A stretch of DNA of 64,000 bases, from positions 6,574-70,573 of the forward strand of contig JBDRLL010000033.1 of assembly GCA_043813075.1 (NCBI GenBank), in the 5' to 3' direction. Positions 38,015 to 63,038 of this stretch are shown here, piece by piece. The position numbers and the translations under genes were made by a program. Source of the DNA: Candidatus Altiarchaeota archaeon. Its GTDB lineage: Archaea > Altiarchaeota > Altiarchaeia > IMC4 > SCGC-AAA252-I15. Under the pieces are notes generated by a model, which saw only the letters and a list, made by a program, of their open reading frames with translations, made no database searches and had not been told where the DNA came from. Within the stretch, counting starts at the first letter, position 1. The number at the start of each line of letters is the position of its first letter.

Positions 38015-40762
38015 ATGAAGACATTGAAACGGATTGGATCCGTGGCTGCCGGCGCTCTAATGCTGGGTTCAGCAATAGCAGGCGCAGTAAGTGCAGGCAT
38101 GGACGACACCGGAATGACGAAGAACTTCTTCTATGACGCCAGCTTCAACCCTGTTGTGCAGATTGTTGTTGGTGAGAAGGGTCTAGCGTCAGACTCCGTT
38201 GCAGCAGGAAACATTGCAGCGGTAATAGGGAACCTGGCGTACACAAGTGCGACAGCAGACGCCACCGGCGGATCAGCCAGTGGACAAGTCGTGCTAGGAG
38301 TGTCCGCGAAGGGAGCTACAGGAAAGTTTGAGCAAGCAAGCCACCCAAGCTCTGGGAAGTTTATTACTACGAACACGGACAGTGACTCGTACATGGACTT
38401 CTACAACGACAACGATGGTTTGGTGTTCAAGAGCTCCGCAGAGACGTACTCGCGCGGCGAATTCGTGAGCTACAGCCTAGCTTGCGACCAGCAGCAGAGA
38501 ACAGAAGCCGGGATCCTAAAGGAGGGAACGTACAACAACGTACACTGCTTGTTCTGTCAGACGCTTTGTCTAGCACAGCTAGAGAACCCAGAGCACGAGA
38601 TGGAGGAGATGATATCTGTCGATTACAGCCAGATTACATGGTATGAAGACGGTCTAAGTACGGACGACGCCGAGGCGCTCACACTAAAGATCGCCAGCAA
38701 GGCAGTAACGTACATCGTGGACACAGGATACGTACCCATGAACACAATCGACGGTGGAAGCGCCACAGACGACCAGCTGGACTTTGAATGGAGAGGCAAG
38801 ATGATACTCTTCGGTGAAGAGTATTACGTGAAAGACATTGAAGGTATGACCAAAGTATACCTAGCAAAAGGTAAGATATTGGACGACATCTCATCTGAAG
38901 GATACACTTCAGAGTACATGGGGTACAAGTTCAAGATCGACCACCTGATATACTCAGCAGAGTACCAGGTCGCAGGGATACTCCTAGATGTCGAGAAGCC
39001 AGACGGAACAGTAGTCCAGACCCAGATCAGCAAGATGGCGAACGGTATCGTTGACGACATCGAGATAGCGGGCGTATACGCTGAAGAAGCGGATGCAGTC
39101 GCTACAGCGAGCATAATCGTCTATGATACGACAAGCAACGTTCTCTTGGAAGACGGTAAGGACATGGAGCTAGGCGGAGAAGTCAAGAAATACTGGAAAG
39201 TCGACTTAAGCACCGTAGGTGCAAACGACTCAAGCGTCGACGTGACAGAATACAACGCAGCCACATCCGGTACAGTATTGTCAAACATAACAATACAGTA
39301 CAGGCACTCTGTAGAACTAGAGGAAGGAGAGGCGTTGCAGTTCCCAAGCACGTTCAAGCTTGTGTTCGACGGCTTCAGGACGAACGACTACTCTGAGAGC
39401 GCGTGTTCAGGAGCAGGAAGCGGCGACATCGTCATTGAGAAGGAAGGCAAGTCAAGGTGTAAGATAAGCTTCACCGGTGACGACGGCAACAGGTACGACG
39501 ACGTGTATATGGACCAAGGTCCGTTCTCAGAAGGCGACATGTTCATACTAAATGGACTAGTCTTCGAGTACGACGACGCTAAGGAGCTTACAACCGACTT
39601 AACAACCCTAAGGTTAACCATGAGGGACCTGTTAAACGGCGGTAAGAAGACAGCAGACCTAACGGCCATATCGACGGCAGACATCGACGCGCTATACCTA
39701 TACACATACGCGTTCGAGTCAGCAGCCGACAACGACCAGGAGCTAACCGCAATCGAGCCAGACGCAGACCAAAACGACTCTGACGTATATGTAGGTGTGT
39801 TCGACGCCAACGGCGAAGACAAGCCCGTATTATACAACGGAGGAGACTTGTACCTAACCACAAGCACTGCAGTAGCTTCGATAAACGGTAGCCAGCTAGG
39901 TTGTCACGCAACACCATTCGGTGGAAGCGACCTGTCAAAGCTGCAGTTAGACGACGCAACCCTGAGCATAGACATATACAACGAGCCCAGTGCCTACGCA
40001 GGCGCGCCAAACGTAGCCTACGCTGGCAACAGCACTGCTGATTCGACAGCAGACAGGGACAACGACTACGACGACGCATTAATCCGCCTGGTAAACCAGG
40101 AGGGTGAATACATTGTCGTGGACTTCTATGACAGGGACTTCAACGACAGCGTGGACACATACTACTCTCAAGGTGTGTGGGCAGGCGGAAACAACCTACC
40201 GTGGGCTGGAAACACCAGCATGTACTCCGTAGGATTCGAGAACGAGGAGGACACATTGCTGATAACCCCACAGGGAGGTACGCGCGTGACAGTTGACTGG
40301 GGCGGAGCCCGTGAAGTCGACAAGGTCACAGTATGCCAGCCACAGGACGTAGTGTACTCCACAATCTTCCTGGGTACCGACGAAGCCACGACCACGATTG
40401 ACGCGGTCATAACAAAGGCTGACGAGGGAACCGAGAAGACTGTCGGATGCTGCAGTTACCTAGTGAAGGAGTTCGGCATAGCAGTGGACAGCGTCTCAGC
40501 GGAGACTGTTTCCATCAACCCGATTGTTGGAAACCTAGTCGTCCCAGAGATCGCAGCAGACACGACCAAGAACCTAGTGGTTGTTGGTGGACCATCCGTG
40601 AACGGACTTTGCGGTCTGACCAAGGATGAGATCCAGGCTGCTTCAGGCCAGTACGTCGTTCGTAAGGACGGTAGTAAGGTCTACATAGCAGGTTGGACAG
40701 CTGCAGACACTGTTGACGCCGGTAACGCCTTAATCGCTTGGTTACAGGCAAACGTCCACTAA
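38015..40762 (+). CDS. S-layer protein (Methanococcales/Thermococcales-type S_layer_N / S_layer_C termini)
   Basis: The signal peptide is MKTLKRIGSVAAGALMLGSAIAGAVSA. It has VVGEKGLASDSVAAGNIAAVIGNLAY, an acidic Thr/Asp-rich body with many N-x-S/T sequons, and the C-terminus NLVVVGGPSVNGL...YIAGWTAADTVDAGNALIAWL. Confidence 0.85.
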   Translation: MKTLKRIGSVAAGALMLGSAIAGAVSAGMDDTGMTKNFFYDASFNPVVQIVVGEKGLASDSVAAGNIAAVIGNLAYTSATADATGGSASGQVVLGVSAKGATGKFEQASHPSSGKFITTNTDSDSYMDFYNDNDGLVFKSSAETYSRGEFVSYSLACDQQQRTEAGILKEGTYNNVHCLFCQTLCLAQLENPEHEMEEMISVDYSQITWYEDGLSTDDAEALTLKIASKAVTYIVDTGYVPMNTIDGGSATDDQLDFEWRGKMILFGEEYYVKDIEGMTKVYLAKGKILDDISSEGYTSEYMGYKFKIDHLIYSAEYQVAGILLDVEKPDGTVVQTQISKMANGIVDDIEIAGVYAEEADAVATASIIVYDTTSNVLLEDGKDMELGGEVKKYWKVDLSTVGANDSSVDVTEYNAATSGTVLSNITIQYRHSVELEEGEALQFPSTFKLVFDGFRTNDYSESACSGAGSGDIVIEKEGKSRCKISFTGDDGNRYDDVYMDQGPFSEGDMFILNGLVFEYDDAKELTTDLTTLRLTMRDLLNGGKKTADLTAISTADIDALYLYTYAFESAADNDQELTAIEPDADQNDSDVYVGVFDANGEDKPVLYNGGDLYLTTSTAVASINGSQLGCHATPFGGSDLSKLQLDDATLSIDIYNEPSAYAGAPNVAYAGNSTADSTADRDNDYDDALIRLVNQEGEYIVVDFYDRDFNDSVDTYYSQGVWAGGNNLPWAGNTSMYSVGFENEEDTLLITPQGGTRVTVDWGGAREVDKVTVCQPQDVVYSTIFLGTDEATTTIDAVITKADEGTEKTVGCCSYLVKEFGIAVDSVSAETVSINPIVGNLVVPEIAADTTKNLVVVGGPSVNGLCGLTKDEIQAASGQYVVRKDGSKVYIAGWTAADTVDAGNALIAWLQANVH

Positions 40763-43882: not shown

Positions 43883-44001
43883 CGGTCAACGGCCATAGCG
43901 GAGGGGCAACACCCGCAACCATTCCGAACGCGGAAGTAAAGTCCTCCAGCGATCCATACAGTACTGCTTACAAAGTGGGAATTATGGGACGCTGTTGACC
44001 A
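43883..44001 (+). rRNA. rrf: 5S ribosomal RNA, not linked to 16S/23S in this window
   Basis: The sequence GGTCAACGGCCATAGCGGAGGGGCAACACCCGCAACCATTCCGAACGCGGAAGTAAAGTCCTCCAGCGATCC...GCTGTTGACC has the terminal helix GGTCAAC/GTTGACC. The TATA-like box tttttatatta lies about 25 nt upstream. Confidence 0.9.
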
Positions 44002-47658: not shown

Positions 47659-47749
47659 GAGAACCCAACCTCTATATGAATTGGGGTTACCTGTAATAAA
47701 ATGAACAATCACTGGGGGAATAGAAAAAATAAAAGGGTTTCAGGCCCGT

Positions 47750-50700
47750 CTAGAACAGGCCTGTGAAGAAGTCCACTATAGTGTCGATGATGCCCTTCTT
47801 CCGTGGTTTAGGCGCCTGCCTCTTTATCGTCGTCGTCGGCTTCATTGTTGTCGTAGTCGGCTTGAGGGTTGTGACGACCTGCATAGTGGTCGGCGGCGAC
47901 ATCAACGTGGTGGTAGGCTTCACTGTCGTGGTCGTGGGCTTAAGGGTCGTTGTCGTCGGCTTAAGCGTGGTGGTGGGCTTCAAAGTCGTCGGAACCACAG
48001 CACCCTCGGCCATTATGAATCCTACTACGGACTTGTAGCCGTTCTTAGTCACCTCCAGGTCGTATCTGCCGGGTGTTGTTGGCGTGAAGAAGACGTTGCC
48101 CATCGCATCGGTCCTGGCGAAGAACACCTCAACCTCATCCCTCAACACCTTCACTGCAGCATCCCATATGTATGGTCCCGTACCCCTCTTGTTGTCCAGC
48201 CTAATCCTGATACGGAGGGGGTTCCCGGCCGGGCCGAACTCTGGAGCATCTATGTAGAGCCTCTTCTTGCTTATGGATCCGCCGCCTGTGGCAGGGGGGT
48301 TGAGCTGGCCCCCAGCCCACACTGAGAACTCGCAGAACGGTATGCGCCACACACAGTATCCGCCTGCACTGCTGATTAGTGCGGCTTCAGAGGTACGGTC
48401 CACACAGTTCTCGCCGTTGTCGTCGCAGTGCCATAGGGAATCGCATCCCCCGCCCGACTCAGGTATCTTAAGCCTGCATTCCTCAGGGTGGAGGTTGTTG
48501 ATGATCTTGTCCCTCGTCTGTTGTGGGAGGCCGACGAACCCTATGCCGCCGCTGGTCCCCTGCTTTATCGCTCCTGCGTCGCTTATGGTGCGCACCTTGT
48601 CGTTTAGCGATGTCTTGCTGAGGTGGCAGTTCAGGAACTGCATGAATGTGGTGTTGGTGTTCTTCTCCAGTTTTATGTCCGCAGACCTGCCGTCAGTGTA
48701 GTTCGTCCTCATCCCCGCGTCCGCACCGCACATCTGGCCTTGCATGTGCTCGTAGGTGCCGTCCCGGTCCAGGTCGTAGCTAACCACCCAAGAGCTGGGC
48801 GCCTTTATCCTGGTCACGAAATTGCAGTACGGGCATCTGTCCGCGCTGGTTGTCGTGAAGTTGCTGCACTTGCTTGTCGTGCACCTGCCGTTGGTGTCGC
48901 ATATCTGCAGCTTGTAGAAGTAGGTGGTCGACGCCAGCAGGTCGTAGTCCAGGGAGTTGACTCCGCCGTCATTGTATATGTCCCCGATATGCCATACCTT
49001 GAACTCCTTGCTCAGGTTGCTGAGTATGCCTATGTCATGGATGTACGTCACGTTGCCGGTGCACCCTGAAGTCGTGTTGTAGAACAACACTGAGCCGTTG
49101 GTCGGCTTGTTGGTGTCATACATTATCATCGCCGCGTCTGGATACTCCTCTATCTTGGCTCCAACCAGCATGGGGGTGGAAGTGTCCTCGTATCCTGGAG
49201 CATGCACTCCAAGACCATTGTTCACGCAGAACGATGTTCCATAGCAGAACATGCTCTCGCAGCCCGCTGGAGTGAAGCAGTCCGCGAAATCGACGAAACC
49301 CTGCTTCATCATGTCGTTGAATTTCGAGGCGTCAGTGCCGTAGCTGAACATGTCTCCTATGTCAAAGTCCACTGAGCCTGGAGTGAACCATCCGGGCATG
49401 TCAACAATGTCTGACGGATTCGTGGCGCTGCCTGTGCAGTTGTCTGAAGCCACGAATATCCTGAAGTCCACTGACTCATTGTATAGTGTCGGATACTTCT
49501 TCAAACCCTTCTTGTCCACGGCAATCATTGGACCGCCAATCTCAGAGCACATCGCCATCTTAAAGTTGGATAACGTGATGTCTGCCGCAGTCCACTGGCC
49601 GTCAACACACCTGAACGCGTTGTATGTTTCTGACACGCTGCCGCCGGTGTAGTTGGCTTGATAGCGGAGGAGGAACTCGTAGCCCATCATGCTGCTGTTG
49701 TGCATTAGGCTGCAGTTACCTGTCTTCATTCCGTCCGTGTCCAGGTATACGAAGAGCTTCAATGGTTCTTCCCCGCTGCCTTGCTGACCCCATGCCTGAA
49801 GCATCTGGCCGTTGCAGACCGCGGACTGGCTGAAGTCGTTCATCATGGCGCCGAAGGCGAACGTGTCGCCCATGTCCTTGATGCCGAAGCCCACTATGTC
49901 CACTGAGTTGGGGGTTGCGTCGCCCATTGCATCCATGCCCAGGGGAGTTGGCGGGCCGCCCTGCATCTTCTTGAAGTTGTCGACACCCATAGCAGGGTCG
50001 CAGAGCCCGTCCATCCACATGCATCCTTCAGCGCTCCCGCATGTGCCTGCCTCGTTTATCGTGAAGCACTGGGGCTCGCAGTGGTTGTTGGTCCACGTGC
50101 AGTAGGCACTGTATGTTCCAGTCGTAGTGCATTCACCCTGCGTCTGGTAGGAGTTGCATCTGTTGGCCTTCTCCATGCAGAAGTTGTTCTCCCACAGGCA
50201 CCAGTCATTGTTATCGCATTCTGTCTCGTCGTTTATCTGCCCGCACTTGCGTGTCTCGCAGAAGCTCTGCGGGAACGGGAAGTAGGAGCAGCCTGAAGTG
50301 GCGTTGCACGCCGTCTGGTTGCCGTCGAACTGGAAGCACATCATGCCCATGCCGCCTCCGCCGAAGGAGCCTCCGCCGAATCCTATTGGATCGCAGAATC
50401 CGGTTGACCACATGCATGTGCCACTCGGAGCGTTGTCACAGTCGTTCTGGGTCTGGTACTGCATGCAGTCCGCCATACCCTCTGGATCGCACCATCCTCC
50501 GCCGAAGGGGTCCTGGAACCAGGCGCATCCCTCGGTCTGCCCGCAGACTGTTGGATTGTTATCGTACTGAACGCAGTCCACGCCGCCTGAGAACGCCTCG
50601 AAATCGCAGTGTCCGCCCACATCCTGACACCACTGGTCATTCTGTGCCTCAGGAGAGTTGCACCACTCGTCCTGAACCCACACGCAGTTCGAGTCGGCGT

Positions 50701-52912
50701 CGCACGCCTGCTCGCCCAGCGGGAAGCATTCCTCGCCCATTTTCCAGTTCATCACGCATTCTCCGCCTCCCGGTGGCTGATGCCATTCGCAGCTCTCGTT
50801 TTGAATCCCGCAAGCCGTCTGGTTGCCGTCGAACTGGAAGCAGAATGCTCCAGCCATATCGCACCATCCGCCCCACGCGTCGGTCATCCAGAGGCATCCG
50901 TCAGCGTCGTTGCATGATGTCTCGTCGTTGTATGCGAAGCAGTTCCCTCCGCCGCCACCGCATGCAGAGTCGCCGAAGCACCCGCTGTCAGCGCAGTCTA
51001 TAGAGTCATCGTCATCGTCGTCCACACCGTTCCAGCATACTTCAGTGGCTCCTGAAGCGGGCTGGCACATTCCGGCGCCGTCACTCCATTTGCACGCTCC
51101 CGCAGTCCCACGACCCATGTTGTTGCAGTCCTCTCGTTCATAGCACCGGTCGCACGCGTCCGCGCAGGTCTTGTCTCCCTTCGGCACGCAGATGCTCAGT
51201 GAAGTATCCCACTTGCAGTTAGCCTTGCTGTTGTCGCACTCCTTCTGCGGGCTCGGCAGGTACTCGCATCCAGCACAGTCAGTCTGGCAGTCGCCGGCCA
51301 GACCCTTCTTGAGTGCGTCGGCGGGCTCGCAGTATCCGTAGCCGTTGGGTGCGTTAGATTCCTGGATGAACGTGCATCCTCTTGGGGAGTTCTGGCATGC
51401 CGTCTGGGCTGACGACAGGCTTGTGACGTTGTTTCCGTTGCTGTCGTAGTATTCGCACGCGAAGCACGCCTTCTTGCAGTTCCGCTCCTCATCGAACTTG
51501 TTCTCGCATCTTCCGGCAGGCACTGCAATCCATGACTCGCCGGACTGCTCGCAGTATGACTCCATAATCCACTTGCCGCCAGCGTATTCGCACGACTGCT
51601 TGTTGTCTATCTGCGAGACCTTGTCTGCGCCGGAGTCGCCGCTCTTGAACTGGCATTGGCTTGCCGCAGTATTCCATTCGCAGGGCATATACCATGGGCT
51701 GCCCGCTATCTGTTGGCAGAGTTGCTGGTTGTTGTAGGCGTTATAGTCTTCACAATACATCGCACCTTCGGGGGGCGGTTCTATGTCATCCCAGCATGAG
51801 GGGCTGTACGTGTCCTGGCATGCGCCGGCACTCCACTCGCAGCATGTGGGTAAGACAGGTATCTTGTTGCACATGTCGGAGTCGGTTATGTTAGCGCAGA
51901 ATATCTCCTCAGAGCCCTGGCATTCATTGTTCTGCCATGAGCATCCGTCGACGTTACCGCAGGCCGTCTCCGACACGTCGAAGATGTAGCAGCCTGGACT
52001 CCACTTGTCAAAGAAGGTTCCGCCACCTAGCGGCTCGACACATTCCCCCGCATTGAAATCCCAGAAACAGAACATTGTGTCGAAACATTCCCTGTCAGTG
52101 GTGAAGTCTGAGCAGGATTCAGTGAAGTTGCGGAAGCACCAGCCGCCGTTCCCATCCCACACGCATTCGATGCCGTACTGGTTGTTGACGCATCCATCCT
52201 CGGTCGCTGCGCCCTGGAGGGTTATGTTGTCGAAGAGCCAGCACTGCACTTCCTCGCAGTGCCCGCCGCCGGAGGGGGTGAACCAGAAGCAGTCCGCGTT
52301 CTCGCAGTTGTTCTCAGTATTGTATTGGCTGCAGTCCACCCAACCGCAGTATGGGGCGTCCCACTGGCATCCTGATCTGGCGTTGCATGCCGTCTGGTTT
52401 CCGTCCAGTTCATTGCAGGTTGACTCGTAGCAGTAGTTTGAATTATTGTTCCACATGCAGTTTCCAGCACCCATGCCTTTCTTGCCGAGGCATGATGAGG
52501 AGCTCGTGTATTGGTCGCATGGTATTCCATGGCATATTCCGTTGATGTCCCATACGCAGGTTATTCCAGCAGCATTGTTTTCGCAGGTGTTTGTGTTAGT
52601 GTTGTCGAAGTTCCAGCATCCTTTCTCCTCGCACCATCCCTGCACCTGCATGTCGGTCCTCCAGATGCATGACTTGTTTATGGTGTTGGTGGAGTTGGAG
52701 CAGGATTCATTAGCCCATAGGGCCCAGCAGCCCTTCTGCTCGCACCAGGAGCCCATCGGGTCGTTGCGGTAGTCGCATTCGGAGAAGCTGTTGCATAGAG
52801 TCTCGTTTTCATCGTACTGGGAACAGTCCTCCACCGCCGAAACAGACAGAACAACATAGAATATGAATCCCAGCGCCAGAATGGAAAATATTTTTCCTGC
52901 ATTCATTTGCAC
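47750..52912 (-). CDS. Giant secreted Cys-rich modular surface protein (1720 aa) with Thr/Pro/Lys stalk
   Basis: It has a signal peptide (MQMNAGKIFSILALGFIFYVVLSVSA). Roughly 20 copies of a four-Cys module (C-x2-[YF]-x4-6-C-x4-7-C-x-W-x3-9-C) occupy about 49990-52840, and many N-x-S/T sequons are present. Central beta-rich regions and a prealbumin-like domain (TDAMGNVFFTPTTPGRYDLEVTKNGY) follow. The C-terminus has (T)nLKP repeats and a short hydrophobic end, GIIDTIVDFFTGLF. Confidence 0.85.
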   Translation of the reverse strand: MQMNAGKIFSILALGFIFYVVLSVSAVEDCSQYDENETLCNSFSECDYRNDPMGSWCEQKGCWALWANESCSNSTNTINKSCIWRTDMQVQGWCEEKGCWNFDNTNTNTCENNAAGITCVWDINGICHGIPCDQYTSSSSCLGKKGMGAGNCMWNNNSNYCYESTCNELDGNQTACNARSGCQWDAPYCGWVDCSQYNTENNCENADCFWFTPSGGGHCEEVQCWLFDNITLQGAATEDGCVNNQYGIECVWDGNGGWCFRNFTESCSDFTTDRECFDTMFCFWDFNAGECVEPLGGGTFFDKWSPGCYIFDVSETACGNVDGCSWQNNECQGSEEIFCANITDSDMCNKIPVLPTCCEWSAGACQDTYSPSCWDDIEPPPEGAMYCEDYNAYNNQQLCQQIAGSPWYMPCEWNTAASQCQFKSGDSGADKVSQIDNKQSCEYAGGKWIMESYCEQSGESWIAVPAGRCENKFDEERNCKKACFACEYYDSNGNNVTSLSSAQTACQNSPRGCTFIQESNAPNGYGYCEPADALKKGLAGDCQTDCAGCEYLPSPQKECDNSKANCKWDTSLSICVPKGDKTCADACDRCYEREDCNNMGRGTAGACKWSDGAGMCQPASGATEVCWNGVDDDDDDSIDCADSGCFGDSACGGGGGNCFAYNDETSCNDADGCLWMTDAWGGWCDMAGAFCFQFDGNQTACGIQNESCEWHQPPGGGECVMNWKMGEECFPLGEQACDADSNCVWVQDEWCNSPEAQNDQWCQDVGGHCDFEAFSGGVDCVQYDNNPTVCGQTEGCAWFQDPFGGGWCDPEGMADCMQYQTQNDCDNAPSGTCMWSTGFCDPIGFGGGSFGGGGMGMMCFQFDGNQTACNATSGCSYFPFPQSFCETRKCGQINDETECDNNDWCLWENNFCMEKANRCNSYQTQGECTTTGTYSAYCTWTNNHCEPQCFTINEAGTCGSAEGCMWMDGLCDPAMGVDNFKKMQGGPPTPLGMDAMGDATPNSVDIVGFGIKDMGDTFAFGAMMNDFSQSAVCNGQMLQAWGQQGSGEEPLKLFVYLDTDGMKTGNCSLMHNSSMMGYEFLLRYQANYTGGSVSETYNAFRCVDGQWTAADITLSNFKMAMCSEIGGPMIAVDKKGLKKYPTLYNESVDFRIFVASDNCTGSATNPSDIVDMPGWFTPGSVDFDIGDMFSYGTDASKFNDMMKQGFVDFADCFTPAGCESMFCYGTSFCVNNGLGVHAPGYEDTSTPMLVGAKIEEYPDAAMIMYDTNKPTNGSVLFYNTTSGCTGNVTYIHDIGILSNLSKEFKVWHIGDIYNDGGVNSLDYDLLASTTYFYKLQICDTNGRCTTSKCSNFTTTSADRCPYCNFVTRIKAPSSWVVSYDLDRDGTYEHMQGQMCGADAGMRTNYTDGRSADIKLEKNTNTTFMQFLNCHLSKTSLNDKVRTISDAGAIKQGTSGGIGFVGLPQQTRDKIINNLHPEECRLKIPESGGGCDSLWHCDDNGENCVDRTSEAALISSAGGYCVWRIPFCEFSVWAGGQLNPPATGGGSISKKRLYIDAPEFGPAGNPLRIRIRLDNKRGTGPYIWDAAVKVLRDEVEVFFARTDAMGNVFFTPTTPGRYDLEVTKNGYKSVVGFIMAEGAVVPTTLKPTTTLKPTTTTLKPTTTTVKPTTTLMSPPTTMQVVTTLKPTTTTMKPTTTIKRQAPKPRKKGIIDTIVDFFTGLF
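47828..47992 (-). repeat. Imperfect tandem 18-21 nt coding repeats for PTT(T)(T)[LVM]K
   Basis: The plus strand shows reiterated gtcgtcgt/ggtggtgg-ggctt[c/a]a units. They translate to PTTLKPTTTLKPTTTTLKPTTTTVKPTTT...TTLKPTTTTMKPTTT. Confidence 0.8.
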
Positions 52913-52972
52913 ACCAACAGAACTGCGTTAATGTAGAATTAGATTTCAATAGTATATATATTGTGCGCTATT

Positions 52973-54370
52973 TTATTTTTTTCGTTCGTAGACGCCTGGG
53001 AACCTGGTCCTACGGTAGTCTTTAGACAGCCCGCACGCCCTCAAGTCTATCAGCGTGTCAGATATTATCCCAGGCTTCTTCTTTTTTATGAGACTGCACG
53101 TGTCATAGTCATCGTATCTCCCGCCCGTGACCATGTTGTACGTGTCAAGACCCTTCCCATGGTGCAGTGAATACCAGAAGTAGTGGAGGTCCCGCCTGTA
53201 GAGGTTGAAGTTTATGTCCCCGTCGTACACGTAGTCTCCTGCAGACGTCTTGAAAGGCACGAGCTCCACCACCCCAAGCTGCTGCCGGTAGTCTGGGTAG
53301 AGAGTCTGCACGGTTGCCAGGGAATAGAGTAGGGGCACTGAGACCATCGCCAGAACCGCTATAAAACGGTAGGCTGGCCGGATTCTGGGGAATAGCCTCT
53401 CCGTCAGGAGTATGGACGCCAGTATGGAAATCAACGGTATCAGAGGGAGGAAGTACTGTCGGTGGGGTAGTTTAACTGTGAAAAGGGAGGCGGCAAGCAG
53501 GAGGGAGAGGAACGATATGGTCTTCACCCCATTCCGGGGGGAGTTCTTGAGCAGGTAGGGTATTGCGAAGAGGCCTATGGCCCATAGGAAGACGTTTATC
53601 CATAGGCTGTATATCTGCTGGGTTATGGGGAATGATTGCATGAGGTACACGTTCACCAGCCAGTTGGTGACGTAGTAGTCTTGTAGAGAGCCGGACGCGT
53701 ACAGTAGGAGTAGGAACAGGATGAATGGGGTGATGAAAAACAGGGAGTACAATCCGACATCACGCAGCGCCGGAACACGCCTCTCTCTCGAAAGGACGTG
53801 GTGCAATAGCACGGCGTATATGCCGGCAGCCAGGAACAACGCCTTCTGGGAGAATAGGACCGCTATTGAGAGATAAAGTGCGGACAACGCCAGCCGACGG
53901 CTGGAACCATCATGCGAGAGGAGGTAGTATAAGGAGGCCATTCCCAGGAGCGTCTGAATCCCTGCTGGACGTACCTCAACCACCTTGTCTATGAAAATCA
54001 GGCAGCTGGACATGAGGATGATGGACAGCATCCGCGTCTCCGTTGAATCGGAAAGCCTCCTGGAAACCAGGTAAGTTAAGTAGATTATGCCGTAGGCCAC
54101 TGCGAGCATGAGCAGCCTGCATGCGAACAGGGTTGTTGTCGTCTCCCCGAACAGGAGGATTACGGGGGCGAGGAGATACCATAGTAGGGGGTTATGATGC
54201 TGGAAGAAGTCCCTGTAGGGGATGTAACCGTTAAGGACATACCATGCGGAATGCACGTGCTCGAACTCGTCGTGGTCAAACACCCTGAAGAAAGAGTTCA
54301 GTGAAACGACTATGACGCACACTAGCAGGATCCCGTAAAGCGAATTGAGGTATAGCTGATTCTCGTCCAA
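52973..54370 (-). CDS. GT-C fold membrane glycosyltransferase, PMT/ArnT-like (GT39/GT83-type)
   Basis: It has a TTG start and about 11 predicted TM helices. The first-loop acidic motif VFDHDEFEHVH resembles the FDE-xHF loop-1 motif of protein O-mannosyltransferases. A C-terminal soluble domain is present. Confidence 0.6.
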   Translation of the reverse strand: MDENQLYLNSLYGILLVCVIVVSLNSFFRVFDHDEFEHVHSAWYVLNGYIPYRDFFQHHNPLLWYLLAPVILLFGETTTTLFACRLLMLAVAYGIIYLTYLVSRRLSDSTETRMLSIILMSSCLIFIDKVVEVRPAGIQTLLGMASLYYLLSHDGSSRRLALSALYLSIAVLFSQKALFLAAGIYAVLLHHVLSRERRVPALRDVGLYSLFFITPFILFLLLLYASGSLQDYYVTNWLVNVYLMQSFPITQQIYSLWINVFLWAIGLFAIPYLLKNSPRNGVKTISFLSLLLAASLFTVKLPHRQYFLPLIPLISILASILLTERLFPRIRPAYRFIAVLAMVSVPLLYSLATVQTLYPDYRQQLGVVELVPFKTSAGDYVYDGDINFNLYRRDLHYFWYSLHHGKGLDTYNMVTGGRYDDYDTCSLIKKKKPGIISDTLIDLRACGLSKDYRRTRFPGVYERKK

Positions 54371-56411: not shown

Positions 56412-58325
56412 ATGTCTCCAGACAGTGTGAGCTATCATTTGATTGCGTTGTTCTTGCTGGCCATCCTATCGACTACGATAATAGTCGGCTGGACGTATTC
56501 TGGGGTCATCAATGTTGATGACAGGTTGGATGTGAAACCTGCAGTAGTTGAAGACAATAATAAAACCCTAAAACTAGCCGGTAAGGCGATAAGGGCGGCT
56601 GTGGATTCCGGCGACGCCGGCGAGTGCGATGCCCTAGATGGCAGATTGCTTGTGGAATGCGTGATTGAAGTCGCTAGGACTTCAAAGCCTGACGCGTGCG
56701 AGATGCTCAAAGACCATGCGGGAGACTATGGGAAATGCATTACTGAAGTGTCGCTTGTGAAAAACTCTGGAAAATGCGATATGCTCGGCAAGAAGACGAA
56801 GGAATACGTTAACTGCATAACAGAGAAGGCGAGGTACGAGATGAGGCCGGGCCTGTGCAACATGCTGAAGAAGGGCGGGGTGAAGGGCAAGGATTACGCC
56901 TTCTGCATAACAGAACTGTCGAAGGATATGGGCGAGGGTGTGTGCAAGAGGCTGAGGGAAAACAGCAGGAGGTATGAGTCCTGCCTGAATGAAGTCTCAA
57001 TAGAACAGGATGGGGAAGCGGGAGAAGGCTTATGCCCTGACTGCAACGTGCTGGTAATACTGATAGACGCCTTGAGGCCCGACCACATGGGCTGTTATGG
57101 GTATGATAAGGACACAAGCCCGAACATTGACGCTCTATCGGAAAAATCATTCCTATTCAATAATGCTGTCAGCCAGGCAACGTGGACCAAGCCATCCGTA
57201 GCCTCGATCTTCACGTCACTGAATCCTGGAAGGCACTGCACATTAAAGTTCAGCAACACGATAAGAGACGGTCTTGACACCAACGCCCTCCCTAAGAAGC
57301 TGACGACCATTGCGGAGGCGTTCAGGAACAACGGCTACAGGACTTACGGCATCACAAACAACCCGTTCATATCGCCTAAACTACAGTTCGGCCGAGGATT
57401 CAACACATATAAGCTTATAGGATGGAGTTCCCCCACATACACCAACGACAGGAAGGCGACGAGTGAGGTGCTGGACATACTATCGCGGGGGGGGAGAAAT
57501 GAGAGGAAGTTCATTTACCTGCATTACATGGGACCACACACGGAATACAATCCCCCACCACCATACAACAAGATGTTTTTAGGGGGGGATTACGTGTTCA
57601 TCGACACTAGGATGAAGCACCAGAACGAATACAACAGGATTAACCCGGGGATGCTTAAGGTGAGGTATATGGTGTCACAGTACGACGGTGAAATCGCGTT
57701 CATAGACTCTGAGGTGAAGACGCTGCTAAACGGCTTGATGGAGGAGAAGATGCTTGAAAAGACCATAGTCGTGATAACAGCAGACCATGGGGAATTCCTC
57801 GGTGAGGACATAAACGATGACGGTAGGAGGGAGTTTGGACATGTTTACCCGCCCCATGAGATAATGGTGAAAGTGCCCTTGATAATGCATGTTCCGGGCG
57901 TCGATGGGGCTCGCGTCATAAGCCAGCAGGTGAGGCTGATCGACTTGATGCCGACACTGCTGTCCATGACTGGGGGCGCAATACCAGACGGGCTGGACGG
58001 CACAGACATCACCCCAATGCTAAAGGGCTCTGAAATGAACCTCACCGCATACAGTGAGGAAAACAACCCTGAAGTATACTCCATAAGGAGAGGTGACTGG
58101 AAATACACGTATGACTTCAAGAAAAACACGGGCAGCTTATACAACATAACCGCAGACCCGTACGAGAGAGAGCCTGTGGCAAACGAGGGGAAGGTGGAGG
58201 ATGCGCTGAGGGAGGAGATGATGGACTACAGGGACAGCAGGCTATGCGGCGAAGACTACGACGCCACCACCGGCCTGAGCAAGGATACGATAGCCAGGCT
58301 CAGGGCCATAGGATACCTGACGTGA
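56412..58325 (+). CDS. Sulfatase-like (alkaline-phosphatase superfamily) hydrolase/transferase with N-terminal TM and five Cys-pair repeats
   Basis: It has a TM helix, then five copies of C-x2-L-x5-10-[YL]-x2-C-[IVL]-x-E, then VLVILIDALRPDHMGCYGY. Where sulfatases have C/S-x-P-x-R it has SQATWTKPSVASIFTS (Thr/Val at the positions of the formylglycine Cys and the Arg). It also has HYMGPH and TADHGE. Confidence 0.65.
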   Translation: MSPDSVSYHLIALFLLAILSTTIIVGWTYSGVINVDDRLDVKPAVVEDNNKTLKLAGKAIRAAVDSGDAGECDALDGRLLVECVIEVARTSKPDACEMLKDHAGDYGKCITEVSLVKNSGKCDMLGKKTKEYVNCITEKARYEMRPGLCNMLKKGGVKGKDYAFCITELSKDMGEGVCKRLRENSRRYESCLNEVSIEQDGEAGEGLCPDCNVLVILIDALRPDHMGCYGYDKDTSPNIDALSEKSFLFNNAVSQATWTKPSVASIFTSLNPGRHCTLKFSNTIRDGLDTNALPKKLTTIAEAFRNNGYRTYGITNNPFISPKLQFGRGFNTYKLIGWSSPTYTNDRKATSEVLDILSRGGRNERKFIYLHYMGPHTEYNPPPPYNKMFLGGDYVFIDTRMKHQNEYNRINPGMLKVRYMVSQYDGEIAFIDSEVKTLLNGLMEEKMLEKTIVVITADHGEFLGEDINDDGRREFGHVYPPHEIMVKVPLIMHVPGVDGARVISQQVRLIDLMPTLLSMTGGAIPDGLDGTDITPMLKGSEMNLTAYSEENNPEVYSIRRGDWKYTYDFKKNTGSLYNITADPYEREPVANEGKVEDALREEMMDYRDSRLCGEDYDATTGLSKDTIARLRAIGYLT

Positions 58326-59469: not shown

Positions 59470-59907
59470 TTAAACCCCGCATTCAGTCAGGATTATGGCG
59501 CCGTCAGCGGCGACAGTGTACACCATCTCATCACCGTTCTTGTCGTATGCGAACACGTTGAAGAAGACGTCATTCAACTCCGCGGCACGGCGGACGTCAC
59601 TGTAAGAGATTTTCTCAGCCTTCACGTAATCCACGACAACCTGCTTTGCCTCCCCCGGAGTCCTTACCGGAGACTTGCCTTCAACCAGCACCGGACCCTC
59701 AACCCTGTAGTCACTACACCAGCATTGCTCGACCATGCACTCGAAGAGCCCGCACACGTCATCCCTCTCACCCCTGCATTCCTGAGGTATCTCAGCCCAC
59801 GCGATACCCTTATACCTACGCAAGTCGTCGTCGCCCTGATTGCCCCCGTCCATGCAGCCTGACAAAAGCAGGAAAGCGACGACGATTATGGTGGATTTCA
59901 TGCCCAC
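59470..59907 (-). CDS. Lipobox lipoprotein with Cys-rich segment and PepSY-like C-terminal domain
   Basis: It has MGMKSTIIVVAFLLLSGC, then ECRGERDDVCGLFECMVEQCWC, then EAKQVVVDYVKAEKISYSDVRRAAELNDVFFNVFAYDKNGDEMVYTVAADGAII. Confidence 0.5.
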   Translation of the reverse strand: MGMKSTIIVVAFLLLSGCMDGGNQGDDDLRRYKGIAWAEIPQECRGERDDVCGLFECMVEQCWCSDYRVEGPVLVEGKSPVRTPGEAKQVVVDYVKAEKISYSDVRRAAELNDVFFNVFAYDKNGDEMVYTVAADGAIILTECGV

Positions 59908-59938
59908 TAATCCTTATAAAATGGCTGTTAATATATTC

Positions 59939-61078
59939 ATGACACATATGAAGCGTAATGTATCCGCGCTTACGGTATTCTTTCTCATCACATCATTAAC
60001 AGTCAACATGGTCGACGGCAAATCCCTTGGAGACGTTGACTTTGGCAAGGACGGGTGGCAGGTAAAACACTTGGAGTATACTTTCCCCTGCGAAGGCTCG
60101 GCATACGAGGATGGACCATGCCACGGGCAAGAGGAATACCATACTATAACCATTGAATGGCCGGCTTACACTGTAACGCCGCTCCTAACAGCGTATAATA
60201 CGATAACCCATACCAGCGACCATGGATGCAAGTATGGTGGATACGGTTCCACAAAGATATTCGCGGACAAAATATCGGACACCGTGCATTTTGAAGGGGA
60301 ATCTAGGTCATTCCTCTCGGGTAAGGGTGAAAACCGTAGTTACGGTCCGTTTTACGCGGAGCCTGTTAAGGTGAATATAGTGCTAAGGCAGTGCGCGGAC
60401 TACGGATACCTCTACAAGACGACTTTCAGGAAGGATGTCTATTATAAGAATCTCGGATCCTGCGACAACTTCTGTATGACGGCTCACGACAACTGGTCAC
60501 GAGGCAGGGTAGTACAAGGCGAACAATATAAACAGTGTGAATGCTACTGCAAGGAGGGGGACGTGAAGGTGAACAGGGCATATGAGGGAAGATGGGTGTG
60601 CGAGACGACGACCACAACGCTAAAGACCACGACAACAACCTTCCCCCAATACGACAAGGACAAGGAATACTGCGGGCCGGAGAAGAACGATATCATCATG
60701 AAGATTATCCCCCGCGGCCACCTATTCTCTGGTGTGGACTTCAATAGGGGATGCTACGAGCATGACAGGTGCTATGCTGAGTGCGGGCAGACTGGGAAGT
60801 CTAAGGAGTCTTGCGACAGCGAGTTCCGGGAGCGTCTGCATGGGGTCTGCGAGAGCGTATTCGACATATACAGGAGCATGTGCCTGCAGAGGGGATGGTA
60901 CAACCCGTTCAGGTACTCCTGCCTTACCATAACCAAGAAGAACGAGTGGGACTGCTACGGGACAGCCAACACATACTGGGCGGCTGTGGCGGCTGGCGCA
61001 AACATGTTCGACGCATACCCCTGCGGGAAAAAAAGCGAACCATCAAGACCATACACACCCCAGAATCCGCACAAATAA
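59939..61078 (+). CDS. Secreted modular protein: shared N-domain, Thr linker, phospholipase A2-like C-terminal domain
   Basis: The signal peptide is MKRNVSALTVFFLITSLTVN (the start is uncertain among 59921, 59939 and 59948). The N-domain is paralogous to the next gene and the linker is TTTTTLKTTTTT. The C-terminal VDFNRGCYEHDRCY (HD at 60761-60766) matches the [FV]DF-x3-C-x2-HD-x2-Y motif of prokaryotic/fungal secreted PLA2. Confidence 0.55.
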   Translation: MTHMKRNVSALTVFFLITSLTVNMVDGKSLGDVDFGKDGWQVKHLEYTFPCEGSAYEDGPCHGQEEYHTITIEWPAYTVTPLLTAYNTITHTSDHGCKYGGYGSTKIFADKISDTVHFEGESRSFLSGKGENRSYGPFYAEPVKVNIVLRQCADYGYLYKTTFRKDVYYKNLGSCDNFCMTAHDNWSRGRVVQGEQYKQCECYCKEGDVKVNRAYEGRWVCETTTTTLKTTTTTFPQYDKDKEYCGPEKNDIIMKIIPRGHLFSGVDFNRGCYEHDRCYAECGQTGKSKESCDSEFRERLHGVCESVFDIYRSMCLQRGWYNPFRYSCLTITKKNEWDCYGTANTYWAAVAAGANMFDAYPCGKKSEPSRPYTPQNPHK

Positions 61079-61100: not shown

Positions 61101-63038
61101 ATGGTAGCAGTGGCTCGCTTTACCCTGTGCGTTGCGGCAATATTTTTTCTCGCGTCATCAGCGTGCGCTGACTACCGCATCGACTACTCTACTGGACGAA
61201 CCAGCATGGGTGCGGAAGGATGGAATCATAAGAGCGACACTTTCACGTTCACATGCCATGGGGCGGCAGACCTTGTGAACACACCATGCTATGAGAAGGG
61301 AAAACCAGTGACCCGGGAGATGACAGTGTCCGGCAACTATGTGGTAATATACTTTGGGGAGAGATACGAGACTCCAGGATATGAGATGGGGCCTGAAGAC
61401 CTTTGCTGGGTGAAGTACATAAGGGATGGGGAAAAGAGGGCCATATGGTTTGAAGGCCCCATCAAGGAAAAGGCGGGAGTGCAGGAGGGTTATGGCTTCG
61501 ACTCTGAGATAATGAAGGGGCCGGTTACCATACAATACACTTGCAGGCCATACGGGTACGGGAGCTACGTGTATTCGGTAAGGCCGACAAACTGCTGGGT
61601 GGACATATACTATAAGGCCTACAACACGTGTAATGATTTCTGCACTGCGATAAGGGATAACGCATACGGTAAAGAGGAGGAGGGTGTCTGCAACTGCTAC
61701 TGTAACCCTGAATTCAGGAGGGCATACGATTACCTTGTTGTGGGGGAGAGGAAATACCGGCAGGAAGTATGCGCTCCCATAGAGACTACAACGACGACAA
61801 TTAAGACGACCACTACAACACTGAAAAAAGCCACGACCACAAGCACAACCCTCAGGGATAGGAGGGCCACGACAACGACAATACAGGGCTATCGTACCGT
61901 GCGGGGTCAGGTGCACGACGCATACGGTATCCCGCTGCCGAAAGTGAAGGTGGGCTTGTTCTGGCCGGACGACGGGAAAGAAAAGATCACTTACACAAAC
62001 GATGACGGATACTATTCCATTAAAGGGGGGCCGACTTTTGGTGTTAATCCGGAGAACAATGAGAAGGCTACCATAACGGTCTACCTGATTTCTGAGGGAG
62101 ATGGTATACAGATACTTGACTCCAAATCCCACAATACCATGGTATACATTAAGACAGAGTTTCCATTGAACAGTGAGGAGGACTTGATGCAGAACATTGG
62201 CTTTCCGTTGACCGAGTTTGACTGGATAACGTACTCGACGAGAAAGGAGTACCTGCATGATGCTGCAGTAATCTACCATGAGACCATGAGTGCTGTGAAG
62301 TTCTATGAGGAGACTCTCGGCGAGAGTGTGGGATACCAGACTCCTGAGGAGATTCGAATCAACAACAACCAGTATTGTGCGGCATGCCATGTCATTAGGC
62401 CGATCACTCCCATAGAGGATATGGGGATATACTACGACGATGATACGACAGACTATCAGTGTAAGGACCGCCACGACAACCGTGAGTGGCATGAGTTCAG
62501 CCACCACATGATGCTCGATGCATACAACGACTTCCCGGATGGAGGGGGGAATAACCACGGCGGATTTGCAAACCCCGATACTATTGACTCATTCCAGGAA
62601 GGATTTGCTGAGGCCATGGCGATAATCATAAGCGCTGAAAAGAAGGAGCCGTCCCCGAGATTATACGGCACGCACTTTGGTGATATAGACGTGGAGAGGA
62701 ACTATATGGACGACGAGTGGGAGGAGATCAGTGTCGCAGGCCTGATATGGGACCTCTACGATCCGAGAAGCTTTGGCGACGAGGATATGGTGGACATGAG
62801 CTTGAAGCAGGTCTGGGATGTCATAGGGACATATACTCTGAATGTGACGCACCTCTACAATAAGCTGGACAGCCTGGATAACGACGACTTGAGTGAAGAC
62901 GAAGATGGTGACGGGATAAGCGACCTGGACGAGATATTCATAGCTCATGGATTCTACTTGGATGAAAACAGGAATGGAGTATACGATATTAATGAAACAG
63001 TGGGGAGGGGGGACATAGACCGGGAATGGAGGCAGTAA
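61101..63038 (+). CDS. Secreted modular protein: shared N-domain, Thr linker, CarboxypepD_reg-like domain, HExxH gluzincin metalloprotease, acidic Ca-binding-like tail
   Basis: The signal peptide is MVAVARFTLCVAAIFFLASSACA and the linker is TTTTTIKTTTTTLKKATTTSTT. It has VRGQVHDAYGIPLPKVKVGLFWPDD...YTNDDGYYSIKG, HEFSH (62490-62504) with downstream SFQEGFAEAM, and DEDGDGISDLDE. Confidence 0.65.
   Translation: MVAVARFTLCVAAIFFLASSACADYRIDYSTGRTSMGAEGWNHKSDTFTFTCHGAADLVNTPCYEKGKPVTREMTVSGNYVVIYFGERYETPGYEMGPEDLCWVKYIRDGEKRAIWFEGPIKEKAGVQEGYGFDSEIMKGPVTIQYTCRPYGYGSYVYSVRPTNCWVDIYYKAYNTCNDFCTAIRDNAYGKEEEGVCNCYCNPEFRRAYDYLVVGERKYRQEVCAPIETTTTTIKTTTTTLKKATTTSTTLRDRRATTTTIQGYRTVRGQVHDAYGIPLPKVKVGLFWPDDGKEKITYTNDDGYYSIKGGPTFGVNPENNEKATITVYLISEGDGIQILDSKSHNTMVYIKTEFPLNSEEDLMQNIGFPLTEFDWITYSTRKEYLHDAAVIYHETMSAVKFYEETLGESVGYQTPEEIRINNNQYCAACHVIRPITPIEDMGIYYDDDTTDYQCKDRHDNREWHEFSHHMMLDAYNDFPDGGGNNHGGFANPDTIDSFQEGFAEAMAIIISAEKKEPSPRLYGTHFGDIDVERNYMDDEWEEISVAGLIWDLYDPRSFGDEDMVDMSLKQVWDVIGTYTLNVTHLYNKLDSLDNDDLSEDEDGDGISDLDEIFIAHGFYLDENRNGVYDINETVGRGDIDREWRQ

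Follow-up and report, generated by a model that had tools for sequence, protein, structure and literature searches.

What does an archaeon do with a secreted protein of 1720 amino acids (aa) of which 7.7% are cysteine, and is such a protein the peculiarity of one genome or the property of a lineage? The question is raised by a stretch of 64,000 nucleotides (nt), the whole of which is hereafter called the window, from a Candidatus Altiarchaeota archaeon (contig JBDRLL010000033.1 of assembly GCA_043813075.1, positions 6,574 to 70,573). Its reverse strand carries an open reading frame (ORF), at 47750..52912, that stays open from a GTG start for 1720 codons, the length given in the original prediction, which was made from the sequence alone. 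The product, here called the giant protein, contains 132 Cys, 109 of which lie in aa 30-971, together with 50 Trp and 26 N-glycosylation sequons, and it is strongly acidic (222 Asp and Glu residues vs 105 Lys and Arg). A second candidate start, the ATG at 52906-52904, lies two codons past the GTG and is preceded by GGTG; this is the more likely start of the gene. The gene is real, and its product is one orthologue of a colinear, usually single-copy family with a fixed Cys scaffold and a conserved core.

Relatives of the giant protein among DPANN archaea

Searched against 5.8 billion proteins, the giant protein gave 205 hits, the best 120 of which (P0001-P0120) all scored above 980 bits, were typically 1800-2100 aa long and were 30-64% identical to the query. 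More than 200 homologues, of 1700-2100 aa, can be counted as full-length and colinear, at 35-64% identity and >1000 bits. Where source records give the homologues a name, it is either hypothetical protein or "PGF-pre-PGF domain-containing", and the organisms named are Woesearchaeota, Pacearchaeota, Nanoarchaeota, Aenigmarchaeota and, for the best hit, Altiarchaeota. Sixty homologues aligned end to end with the query, at an occupancy of 0.9-1.0 and an identity of 30-66% over aa 30-1540, and it is only in the last 180 residues that conservation across these sequences collapses. Within the alignment, identity is lowest in the distal N-terminal modules (19-37%, vs 45-66% in the centre). The core (aa 975-1560) was also run with HMMER, exhaustively, against 1.84 billion representatives of clusters at 50% identity, and only 216 proteins came back at E ≤ 0.001.

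When one genome was taken per GTDB species, at least 128 loci were found to encode a relative of the giant protein, nearly all of them labelled DPANN. A protein of this kind had been thought unusual for an archaeon, a view that this distribution corrects; judged by its homologues, the giant protein is typical of the DPANN clade. The 80 loci that were kept out of the 128 carry Woese-, Pace-, Nano-, Aenigmat-, Iain- and Altiarchaeota labels and include the complete genome CP010425.1. The 1.3-Mb contig JANQNC010000001.1 is another carrier of the gene. Fifteen loci are labelled "uncultured Methanosarcinales" (L017, L025, L036, L037, L043, L047, L055, L060, L064, L067, L068, L070, L071, L073 and L080), and since they interleave with DPANN sequences at 60-70% identity and most of them have DPANN-labelled nearest neighbours, at 50-71% core identity, the labels are probably an artefact of mislabelled "uncultured Methanosarcinales archaeon" metagenome-assembled genome (MAG) records. 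Keyword searches of the literature and a metaproteome supplement yielded no description of the giant Cys-rich family; the family is undescribed, while the anchored archaeal surface glycoprotein is already known as a general kind.

Beside these Cys-rich proteins there is a low-Cys subfamily (2.5-3.5% Cys; P0212, P0225-P0229, P0244, P0251, P0258 and P0263), in which the same three-domain core, at about aa 490-1040, is combined with a different N-terminal domain and long Ig-like C-terminal extensions. Ten of its members were looked up, and the three that are organism-labelled come from Woesearchaeota or unclassified archaea. Inside the window, a scan with module hidden Markov models (HMMs) detected no other ORF that carries the four-Cys module, and the second giant ORF, at 8984-14500 on the forward strand, was rejected as a paralogue, being unrelated. 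It encodes 1838 aa without a signal peptide, a Pfam family or a PDB sequence match, and the GC content around it is raised (0.57).

Modules, cysteines and predicted folds

The array of four-Cys, Trp-containing modules with embedded sequons, on which the original prediction centred, holds up well. Module HMMs delimited 19 canonical modules and four variants, i.e., about 23 across aa 30-973, the variants being a six-Cys module (aa 339-373) and the tails of three six-Cys units (aa 479-618). The four-Cys regular expression matched 14 times and C-x-W occurred 21 times, vs 0.68 ± 0.86 (maximum 5) and 4.6 ± 2.0, respectively, in 2000 shuffles of aa 27-975. Each module is 25-37 aa long and has four invariant Cys in the spacing C-x8-10-C-x5-6-C-x-W-x5-10-C, with aromatic residues after Cys1 (C-W-x-Y) and a nearly invariant Trp following Cys3. 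All the module strings that had been quoted are present (CSQYNTENNC... at aa 194, CVQYDNNPTVC... at aa 780 and CFQFDGNQTACNATSGCSY at aa 859), as are the Asp-rich stretch (WNGVDDDDDDSIDCADSGC, aa 627), the three copies of DGNQTAC (aa 170, 695 and 863) and the C-x2-3-C-x2-C-[EY] units, which take the form of three C-x3-C-x2-C-[EY] units at aa 479, 542 and 583. Six sequons recur in at least 50% of homologues (N172, N697, N865, N1072, N1272 and N1404), including all three DGNQT sites. Repeats at the DNA level were looked for in the module array and none were found, the Thr-rich stalk near the C-terminus being the sole repeat region, and the modules must therefore be old and diverged.

The Cys themselves are strongly conserved, with 124 of the 132 in the query at least 90% conserved across the family. 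The mature Cys count is even in 89 of 110 full-length Cys-rich members (binomial p=3.8e-11; mode 152, query 132), and the query lacks family Cys at three places, after aa 124, 180 and 803, in two cases as a whole block of four and in one as a block of about five, which argues that modules are gained and lost whole, as self-contained units. Even counts combined with four-Cys block indels make it likely that the Cys form paired disulfides within modules.

AlphaFold2 models of the two halves of the protein were built from a 61-sequence alignment. The N-terminal half (aa 1-980) is modelled as a chain of beads, in which the modules, including each of those in the first array (aa 30-421), combine two short helices with a beta hairpin C-terminal to them, which bears the C-x-W, and in which the highly conserved aa 446-471 form a long hairpin. 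Its predicted local distance difference test score (pLDDT) is 78 but its predicted template modelling score (pTM) is 0.36, so the local folds are confident and the arrangement of the modules relative to one another is uncertain. The second array also holds a two-Cys remnant (aa 760-770, C762/C769). For aa 960-1720 the model reached a pLDDT of 80 and a pTM of 0.73, and it resolves the beta-rich central domains that had been foreseen into three beta-sandwich domains at about aa 987-1540, mostly with pLDDT >90, a region that also includes a YLDTDG loop. Confidence is low for the transthyretin-like domain, the stalk and the tail, where the last 12 residues are modelled as a helix.

The original prediction could not assign the modules to a family, and the same outcome was reached here with Pfam, NCBIfam, PDB sequence searches and Foldseek. 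At E≤10, the whole protein gave only a sub-threshold CarboxypepD_reg match near the C-terminus in Pfam and no match in NCBIfam; a PDB sequence search with the single protein likewise gave none, and no Pfam, NCBIfam or PDB family spans the modules or the three-domain core. Foldseek, which is weak on tiny disulfide domains, returned nothing from PDB at E<2 for the 980-aa model of the module array (best E=2.2). When 98 modules were scanned one by one against Pfam, weak hits were obtained to Paramecium_SA (PF01508) in nine of them (best E=0.0022; one module scored 15.1 bits vs a cut-off of 21.2), to Trefoil in six and to Dickkopf_N in four, and for EGF, furin-like and TNFR the giant protein has no Pfam hit at E≤10. 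These identities, together with the plexin-semaphorin-integrin (PSI) domain discussed below, were rejected as sub-threshold or without hits. The best PDB match to the module profile was the C-terminal domain of the variant surface glycoprotein (VSG) MITat1.1 (5m4t), at E=0.084.

Two smaller features had also been proposed. For the candidate "prealbumin-like" domain, beta strands are predicted (pLDDT <50), and CarboxypepD_reg (PF13620) scores 23 bits when the protein is scanned whole and 25.5 bits (E=1.7e-5) when aa 1538-1720 are scanned alone; this score, the sole basis of the assignment, stays below the cut-off of 32.3. The Asp-rich stretch is present as CWNGVDDDDDDSIDCADSGC, which fits the teneurin-type pattern C-x-D-x2-D-N/D-D-x-D-G/x-x2-D-C-x-D-x2-C, and the family profile aligns all Cys and Asp with the C-rich domain of teneurin-4 (7plp_A) at E=0.0022 and 18.4 bits, which is of borderline significance; the motif may bind Ca2+. 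The family consensus holds a second C-rich motif, DCxNxxDDDxDGxxDCxDYxC, between core domains 1 and 2, which in the query (aa 1212-1229) is a degenerate linker that has lost its Asp loop. The proposed signal peptide (...LSVSA/VEDC) was likewise recognised here, by eye and by analogy with the N-termini of homologues. The domain plan is collected in Table 1.

Table 1 Features of the giant gene and its product, in window coordinates.
Feature	Residues (aa)	Position (nt)	Strand	Basis
Whole ORF, giant Cys-rich protein, predicted at the surface	1-1720	47750..52912	-	1720 codons from GTG; likely start ATG 52906
TATA-box-like element ATATATATA, about 50 nt upstream of start		52953..52961	-	Sequence inspection; putative own promoter
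GGTG, possible Shine-Dalgarno of the giant gene		52912-52915	-	Sequence inspection
Signal peptide: K-containing n-region, hydrophobic core, VSA/V cleavage motif	1-26	52835..52912	-	Homologues share layout; AlphaFold2 helix 5-22
Module array I: 11 four-Cys modules, one of them the 6-Cys variant (aa 339-373)	30-421	51650..52825	-	Module HMMs, AlphaFold2
Segment among the most conserved N-terminal ones; predicted long beta hairpin, 3 Cys	433-471	51500..51616	-	60% mean identity; AlphaFold2
Three six-Cys units: C-x3-C-x2-C head plus module tail C...C-x-W...C	479-618	51059..51478	-	No Pfam hit
Asp-rich C-rich motif CWNGVDDDDDDSIDCADSGCFGDSAC, of the teneurin-type, putatively Ca-binding kind	623-652	50957..51046	-	Family profile vs 7plp_A, E=0.0022
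Module array II: 9 canonical four-Cys modules, Gly-rich linkers	658-973	49994..50941	-	Module HMMs, AlphaFold2
Conserved core: three beta-sandwich domains	987-1540	48293..49954	-	AlphaFold2 (pLDDT mostly >90), conservation
Putative transthyretin/CarboxypepD_reg-like beta-sandwich, poorly conserved	1550-1636	48005..48265	-	25.5 bits vs cut-off 32.3; strands predicted, low pLDDT
Thr/Pro/Lys stalk: LKPTTTT units, degenerate 21-nt tandem repeats in DNA	1640-1697	47822..47995	-	
C-terminal tail: basic patch KRQAPKPRKK, then 14-residue amphipathic/hydrophobic helix	1698-1720	47753..47821	-	No transmembrane helix; AlphaFold2 helix
T-run TTTTATTTTTTC directly past stop, putative archaeal terminator-like element		47723..47734	-	Inference

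The C-terminus and the genomic surroundings

The query departs from its family at the C-terminus. Most homologues end in a transmembrane (TM) helix and a basic tail, which indicates a type I surface topology for most members, and the nearest relative ends in a Ser/Thr-rich stalk, a 24-residue TM helix and KRHRKR. The query instead ends in ...KPRKKGIIDTIVDFFTGLF followed by the stop, with the tail KKGIIDTIVDFFTGLF and the full layout KRQAPKPRKK-GIIDTIVDFFTGLF, and after aa 1697 there is no TM helix in any reading frame. The NCBIfam PGF-CTERM models are also unmatched, and the description of a Thr-rich stalk whose end is not a normal TM or PGF-CTERM anchor was therefore accurate. By analogy with haloarchaeal S-layer glycoproteins, the stalk is presumed to be an O-glycosylated spacer.

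A TM anchor hidden by a frameshift was considered and rejected, as no frame encodes one and a T-run follows the stop. A 15-nt direct repeat (FFTGL / F-stop-TGL, 47741-47770, reverse strand) holds the TAG stop in its second copy. Past the TAG, another 20 codons, rich in aromatic residues, can be read in frame before a TAA is reached. The stop may have arisen recently, in connection with the missing anchor. The missing anchor may reflect biology, or an assembly or mutation event. Because the usual C-terminal anchor is missing, attachment of the query must differ from that of its relatives; it could be via the amphipathic tail or another envelope protein, or the protein could be released.

At the other end of the gene, the TATA-box-like element suggests that the giant gene has its own promoter. 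Neighbouring ORFs were clustered over 81 loci, and the most frequent cluster occurred in only 10 of them and comprised housekeeping genes, so that a conserved operon or partner gene was rejected. With no neighbour conserved across the family, the giant gene is best described as a stand-alone gene in core-genome surroundings. The downstream genes for MBF1, S2P protease and Elp3 are shared with the nearest relative only, an Altiarchaeota-labelled marine MAG in which the giant gene is split over two contigs.

Several other ORFs of the window deserve mention. Directly upstream, on the same strand, 52973-54370 encodes a 465-aa multipass membrane protein that has no Pfam match at E≤10, which leaves its assignment as a GT-C glycosyltransferase without support from Pfam, and that is absent beside the nearest relative's gene. 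Seven kb from the giant gene, the ORF at 38015-40762 (+) encodes 915 aa with a signal peptide and S_layer_C (PF05124, E=3.8e-11); on this domain match its product is a canonical archaeal S-layer-like protein, possibly a hamus-like one. The adjacent ORFs 59840-61078 (+) and 61101-63038 (+) encode probably secreted, Cys-containing proteins whose N-terminal domains, about 200 aa each, are related (27% identity, E=5e-9); the second protein also gives a weak CarboxypepD_reg hit. A sulfatase-family protein (PF00884) is encoded at 56412-58325 (+), and its first ~190 residues carry C...C-[IL]-[TN]-E repeats that differ from the four-Cys repeat of the giant protein. The window also contains a lone 5S ribosomal RNA gene (43885-44000, +, 71 bits), and no tRNA genes were found across its 64 kb.

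A possible envelope fibril and the alternatives

DPANN archaea are mostly uncultured, and how they build their envelopes and attach to hosts is little understood. With a confidence only a little above even, we favour a giant protein that is a disulfide- and Ca2+-stabilised, glycosylated component of an envelope fibril or coat, which offers a surface for cell contact and is vertically inherited. After Sec export and removal of the signal peptide, the ectodomain would be held by about 66 disulfides and by Ca2+. Its membrane-proximal part would consist of the Thr-rich stalk, probably O-glycosylated, and the transthyretin-like domain; its middle would be the rigid core of three beta-sandwich domains; and its outermost part would be the chain of about 23 mini-domains, with two disulfides each, conserved aromatic residues and N-glycan sequons, and with the teneurin-type, putatively Ca-binding motif placed within this distal chain. 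The result would be a protease-resistant, semi-rigid fibril or coat, standing out from the cell as its surface of contact with other cells, hosts or minerals.

Several observations weigh against this interpretation. Lacking the TM anchor of its family, the query has a weakened case for retention at the surface. Foldseek searches of PDB and BFVD with the core gave generic FN3/Ig/macroglobulin/ConA-like multi-sandwich matches only, at TM-scores <0.2, and such matches transfer no function to it. Many of the organisms that bear the giant protein inhabit anoxic, reducing settings, which is puzzling for disulfide formation outside the cell, and our searches of the literature turned up nothing on the expression, localisation or biochemistry of any member of the family.

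Among the alternatives, a dedicated lectin-like adhesin is one we regard as rather unlikely: the modules would present their aromatics (C-W-x-Y, C-x-W) to host or polymer glycans and so tether the small cell, in the manner of hevein- or carbohydrate-binding module (CBM)-type mini-domains. DPANN archaea are typically episymbionts, and this reading is kept alive by the near-invariant Trp after Cys3, the aromatics after Cys1 and the less conserved distal modules, which would suit a ligand-binding tip. It sits less easily with a fixed Cys scaffold and with high conservation across phyla that presumably have different hosts, and neither a CBM or lectin family in the Pfam scans nor a Foldseek match for the module array speaks for it. 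High conservation and a housekeeping neighbourhood speak, in our view, more for a core component of the envelope than for a host-specific adhesin; the earlier label "adhesin-like" names a plausible candidate role. A bolder proposal, and one that we consider unlikely, is that the family constitutes a conserved host-contact organelle of Woese-, Pace- and Aenigmatarchaeota-type DPANN, a fibril of a new domain class, rigidified by disulfides and Ca2+, that would span the gap to the host envelope and be needed for episymbiotic attachment or material exchange. The remaining readings rank lower than the lectin-like adhesin. That the giant protein is a lattice-forming S-layer subunit of DPANN lineages, carried by a Thr-rich stalk and TM anchor like the haloarchaeal surface glycoprotein and tiling by means of its beta-sandwich core, seems improbable to us, even if the order of signal peptide, ectodomain, Thr-rich stalk and C-terminal TM helix fits anchored archaeal S-layer glycoproteins and the protein is acidic, rich in sequons, widespread, usually single-copy and encoded among housekeeping genes. 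S-layer proteins are usually Cys-poor and fast-evolving. At E≤10 there is no match to PF05123/PF05124 or to NCBIfam S-layer or PGF-CTERM models, and the canonical S-layer-like protein encoded in the same window argues that the giant protein is not the sole or main lattice protein here. The proven DPANN S-layer protein, from Micrarchaeum harzensis, is a 101 kDa protein almost without sulfur-containing amino acids (TIGR01564/TIGR01567), and kinship with it was rejected, the families being different.

Two further alternatives concern the modules themselves. If the Cys groups were ligands of metals (Zn, Fe-S or Cu) and not partners in disulfides, the protein would serve outside the cell as a scaffold for metal binding or redox chemistry, and because one tetra-Cys site per module gives the same arithmetic of even counts and four-Cys indels, we keep this as a minor rival, which the three C-x3-C-x2-C motifs and the reducing habitats would also suit. 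It is nonetheless very improbable in view of a spacing that lacks the paired CxxC knuckles of Zn sites, the lack of any significant hit to a metal-binding family, the confident folding of modules without ligand by AlphaFold2 and the Sec-type signal peptide, Fe-S proteins normally needing folded export. As for the resemblance to PSI repeats that had been suggested, modules and PSI domains are both small extracellular Cys-rich units with a C-x5-6-C-x-W stretch, and PF01437 does give weak hits in 12 of the 98 modules (best 19.2 bits, E=0.0015), of which the module at aa 267-293, at 18.5 bits, scores within the 17-21 bits of bona fide integrin PSI domains. These hits, concentrated in one module type, stay below the gathering score of 23.1 and cover profile positions 2-30 of 52 only. 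A set of five PSI sequences, verified as PSI or PSI_integrin by Pfam and aligned, was compared with the modules by hhalign, which returned a probability of 0.9% for the orthologues of module 8 (the best type) and 2.3% for all modules, over 9-12 columns that correspond to the C-x5-C-x-W stretch only, and the best PSI-containing Foldseek match to the 980-aa model was Sema2b, at E=4.1 and a probability of 0.01. A PSI domain (PF01437/PF17205) has about 50 residues, eight Cys and a C-x-W-C motif, whereas the modules are half that size, have four Cys and lack the motif. With sub-threshold Pfam scores, four Cys, no C-x-W-C and hhalign probabilities of at most 2.3%, we conclude that the modules are not PSI domains by these tests, and an archaeal relative of this eukaryotic receptor module is hardly to be expected here.

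To return to the envelope fibril or coat, a conserved, usually single-copy protein of about 1900 aa that is predicted at the surface across DPANN phyla is a candidate core component of envelope or contact, and a handle for antibodies, cell sorting and identification by cryo-electron tomography. Were the host-contact proposal true, a single tractable surface molecule, common to these uncultured lineages, would be available for capturing them with antibodies, enriching them and imaging them. To domain databases the family offers two structurally unassigned units, namely the four-Cys module and the core of three domains. It also makes one ask how cells that have tiny genomes and often live in anoxic habitats oxidise about 66-76 disulfides extracellularly.

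Known systems resemble the giant protein in parts. The EGF and cbEGF arrays of fibrillin and Notch are a functional analogy only, in that there, too, modules of about 30-45 aa, stapled by disulfides, are strung into long semi-rigid extracellular rods with Ca2+ sites; their Cys count differs, and the giant modules are predicted as helix-helix-hairpin units without an EGF hit. Protist coats (Paramecium surface antigens, PF01508; the trypanosome VSG, 5m4t; Giardia variant-specific surface proteins) are likewise very large or abundant, with periodic small disulfide-rich units in a protective coat, but these are multigene, fast-varying antigens rather than the product of a conserved, usually single-copy giant gene, and the hits to them are below significance. 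With teneurins the giant protein has in common a C-rich motif and, putatively, a transthyretin-like domain, the 7plp motif aligning with aa 623-652 and with the family consensus EICWDGxDNNxDxxIDCADSxC, although it has a single such motif of 30 aa in 1720 aa and no EGF repeats, YD shell or toxin-like domain. The S-layer glycoproteins of Haloferax volcanii and Halobacterium differ in having no sequence or HMM relationship to the giant protein and in being Cys-poor, vs 7-8% Cys in about 23 modules; the giant protein is also twice their size, lacks PGF-CTERM and coexists with an S-layer-like gene. In overall plan they are nevertheless alike, with a Sec signal peptide, an acidic, N-glycosylated beta-sandwich ectodomain (glycosylation being predicted for the giant protein), a Thr-rich membrane-proximal stalk and, as in most members of the family, a C-terminal membrane anchor.

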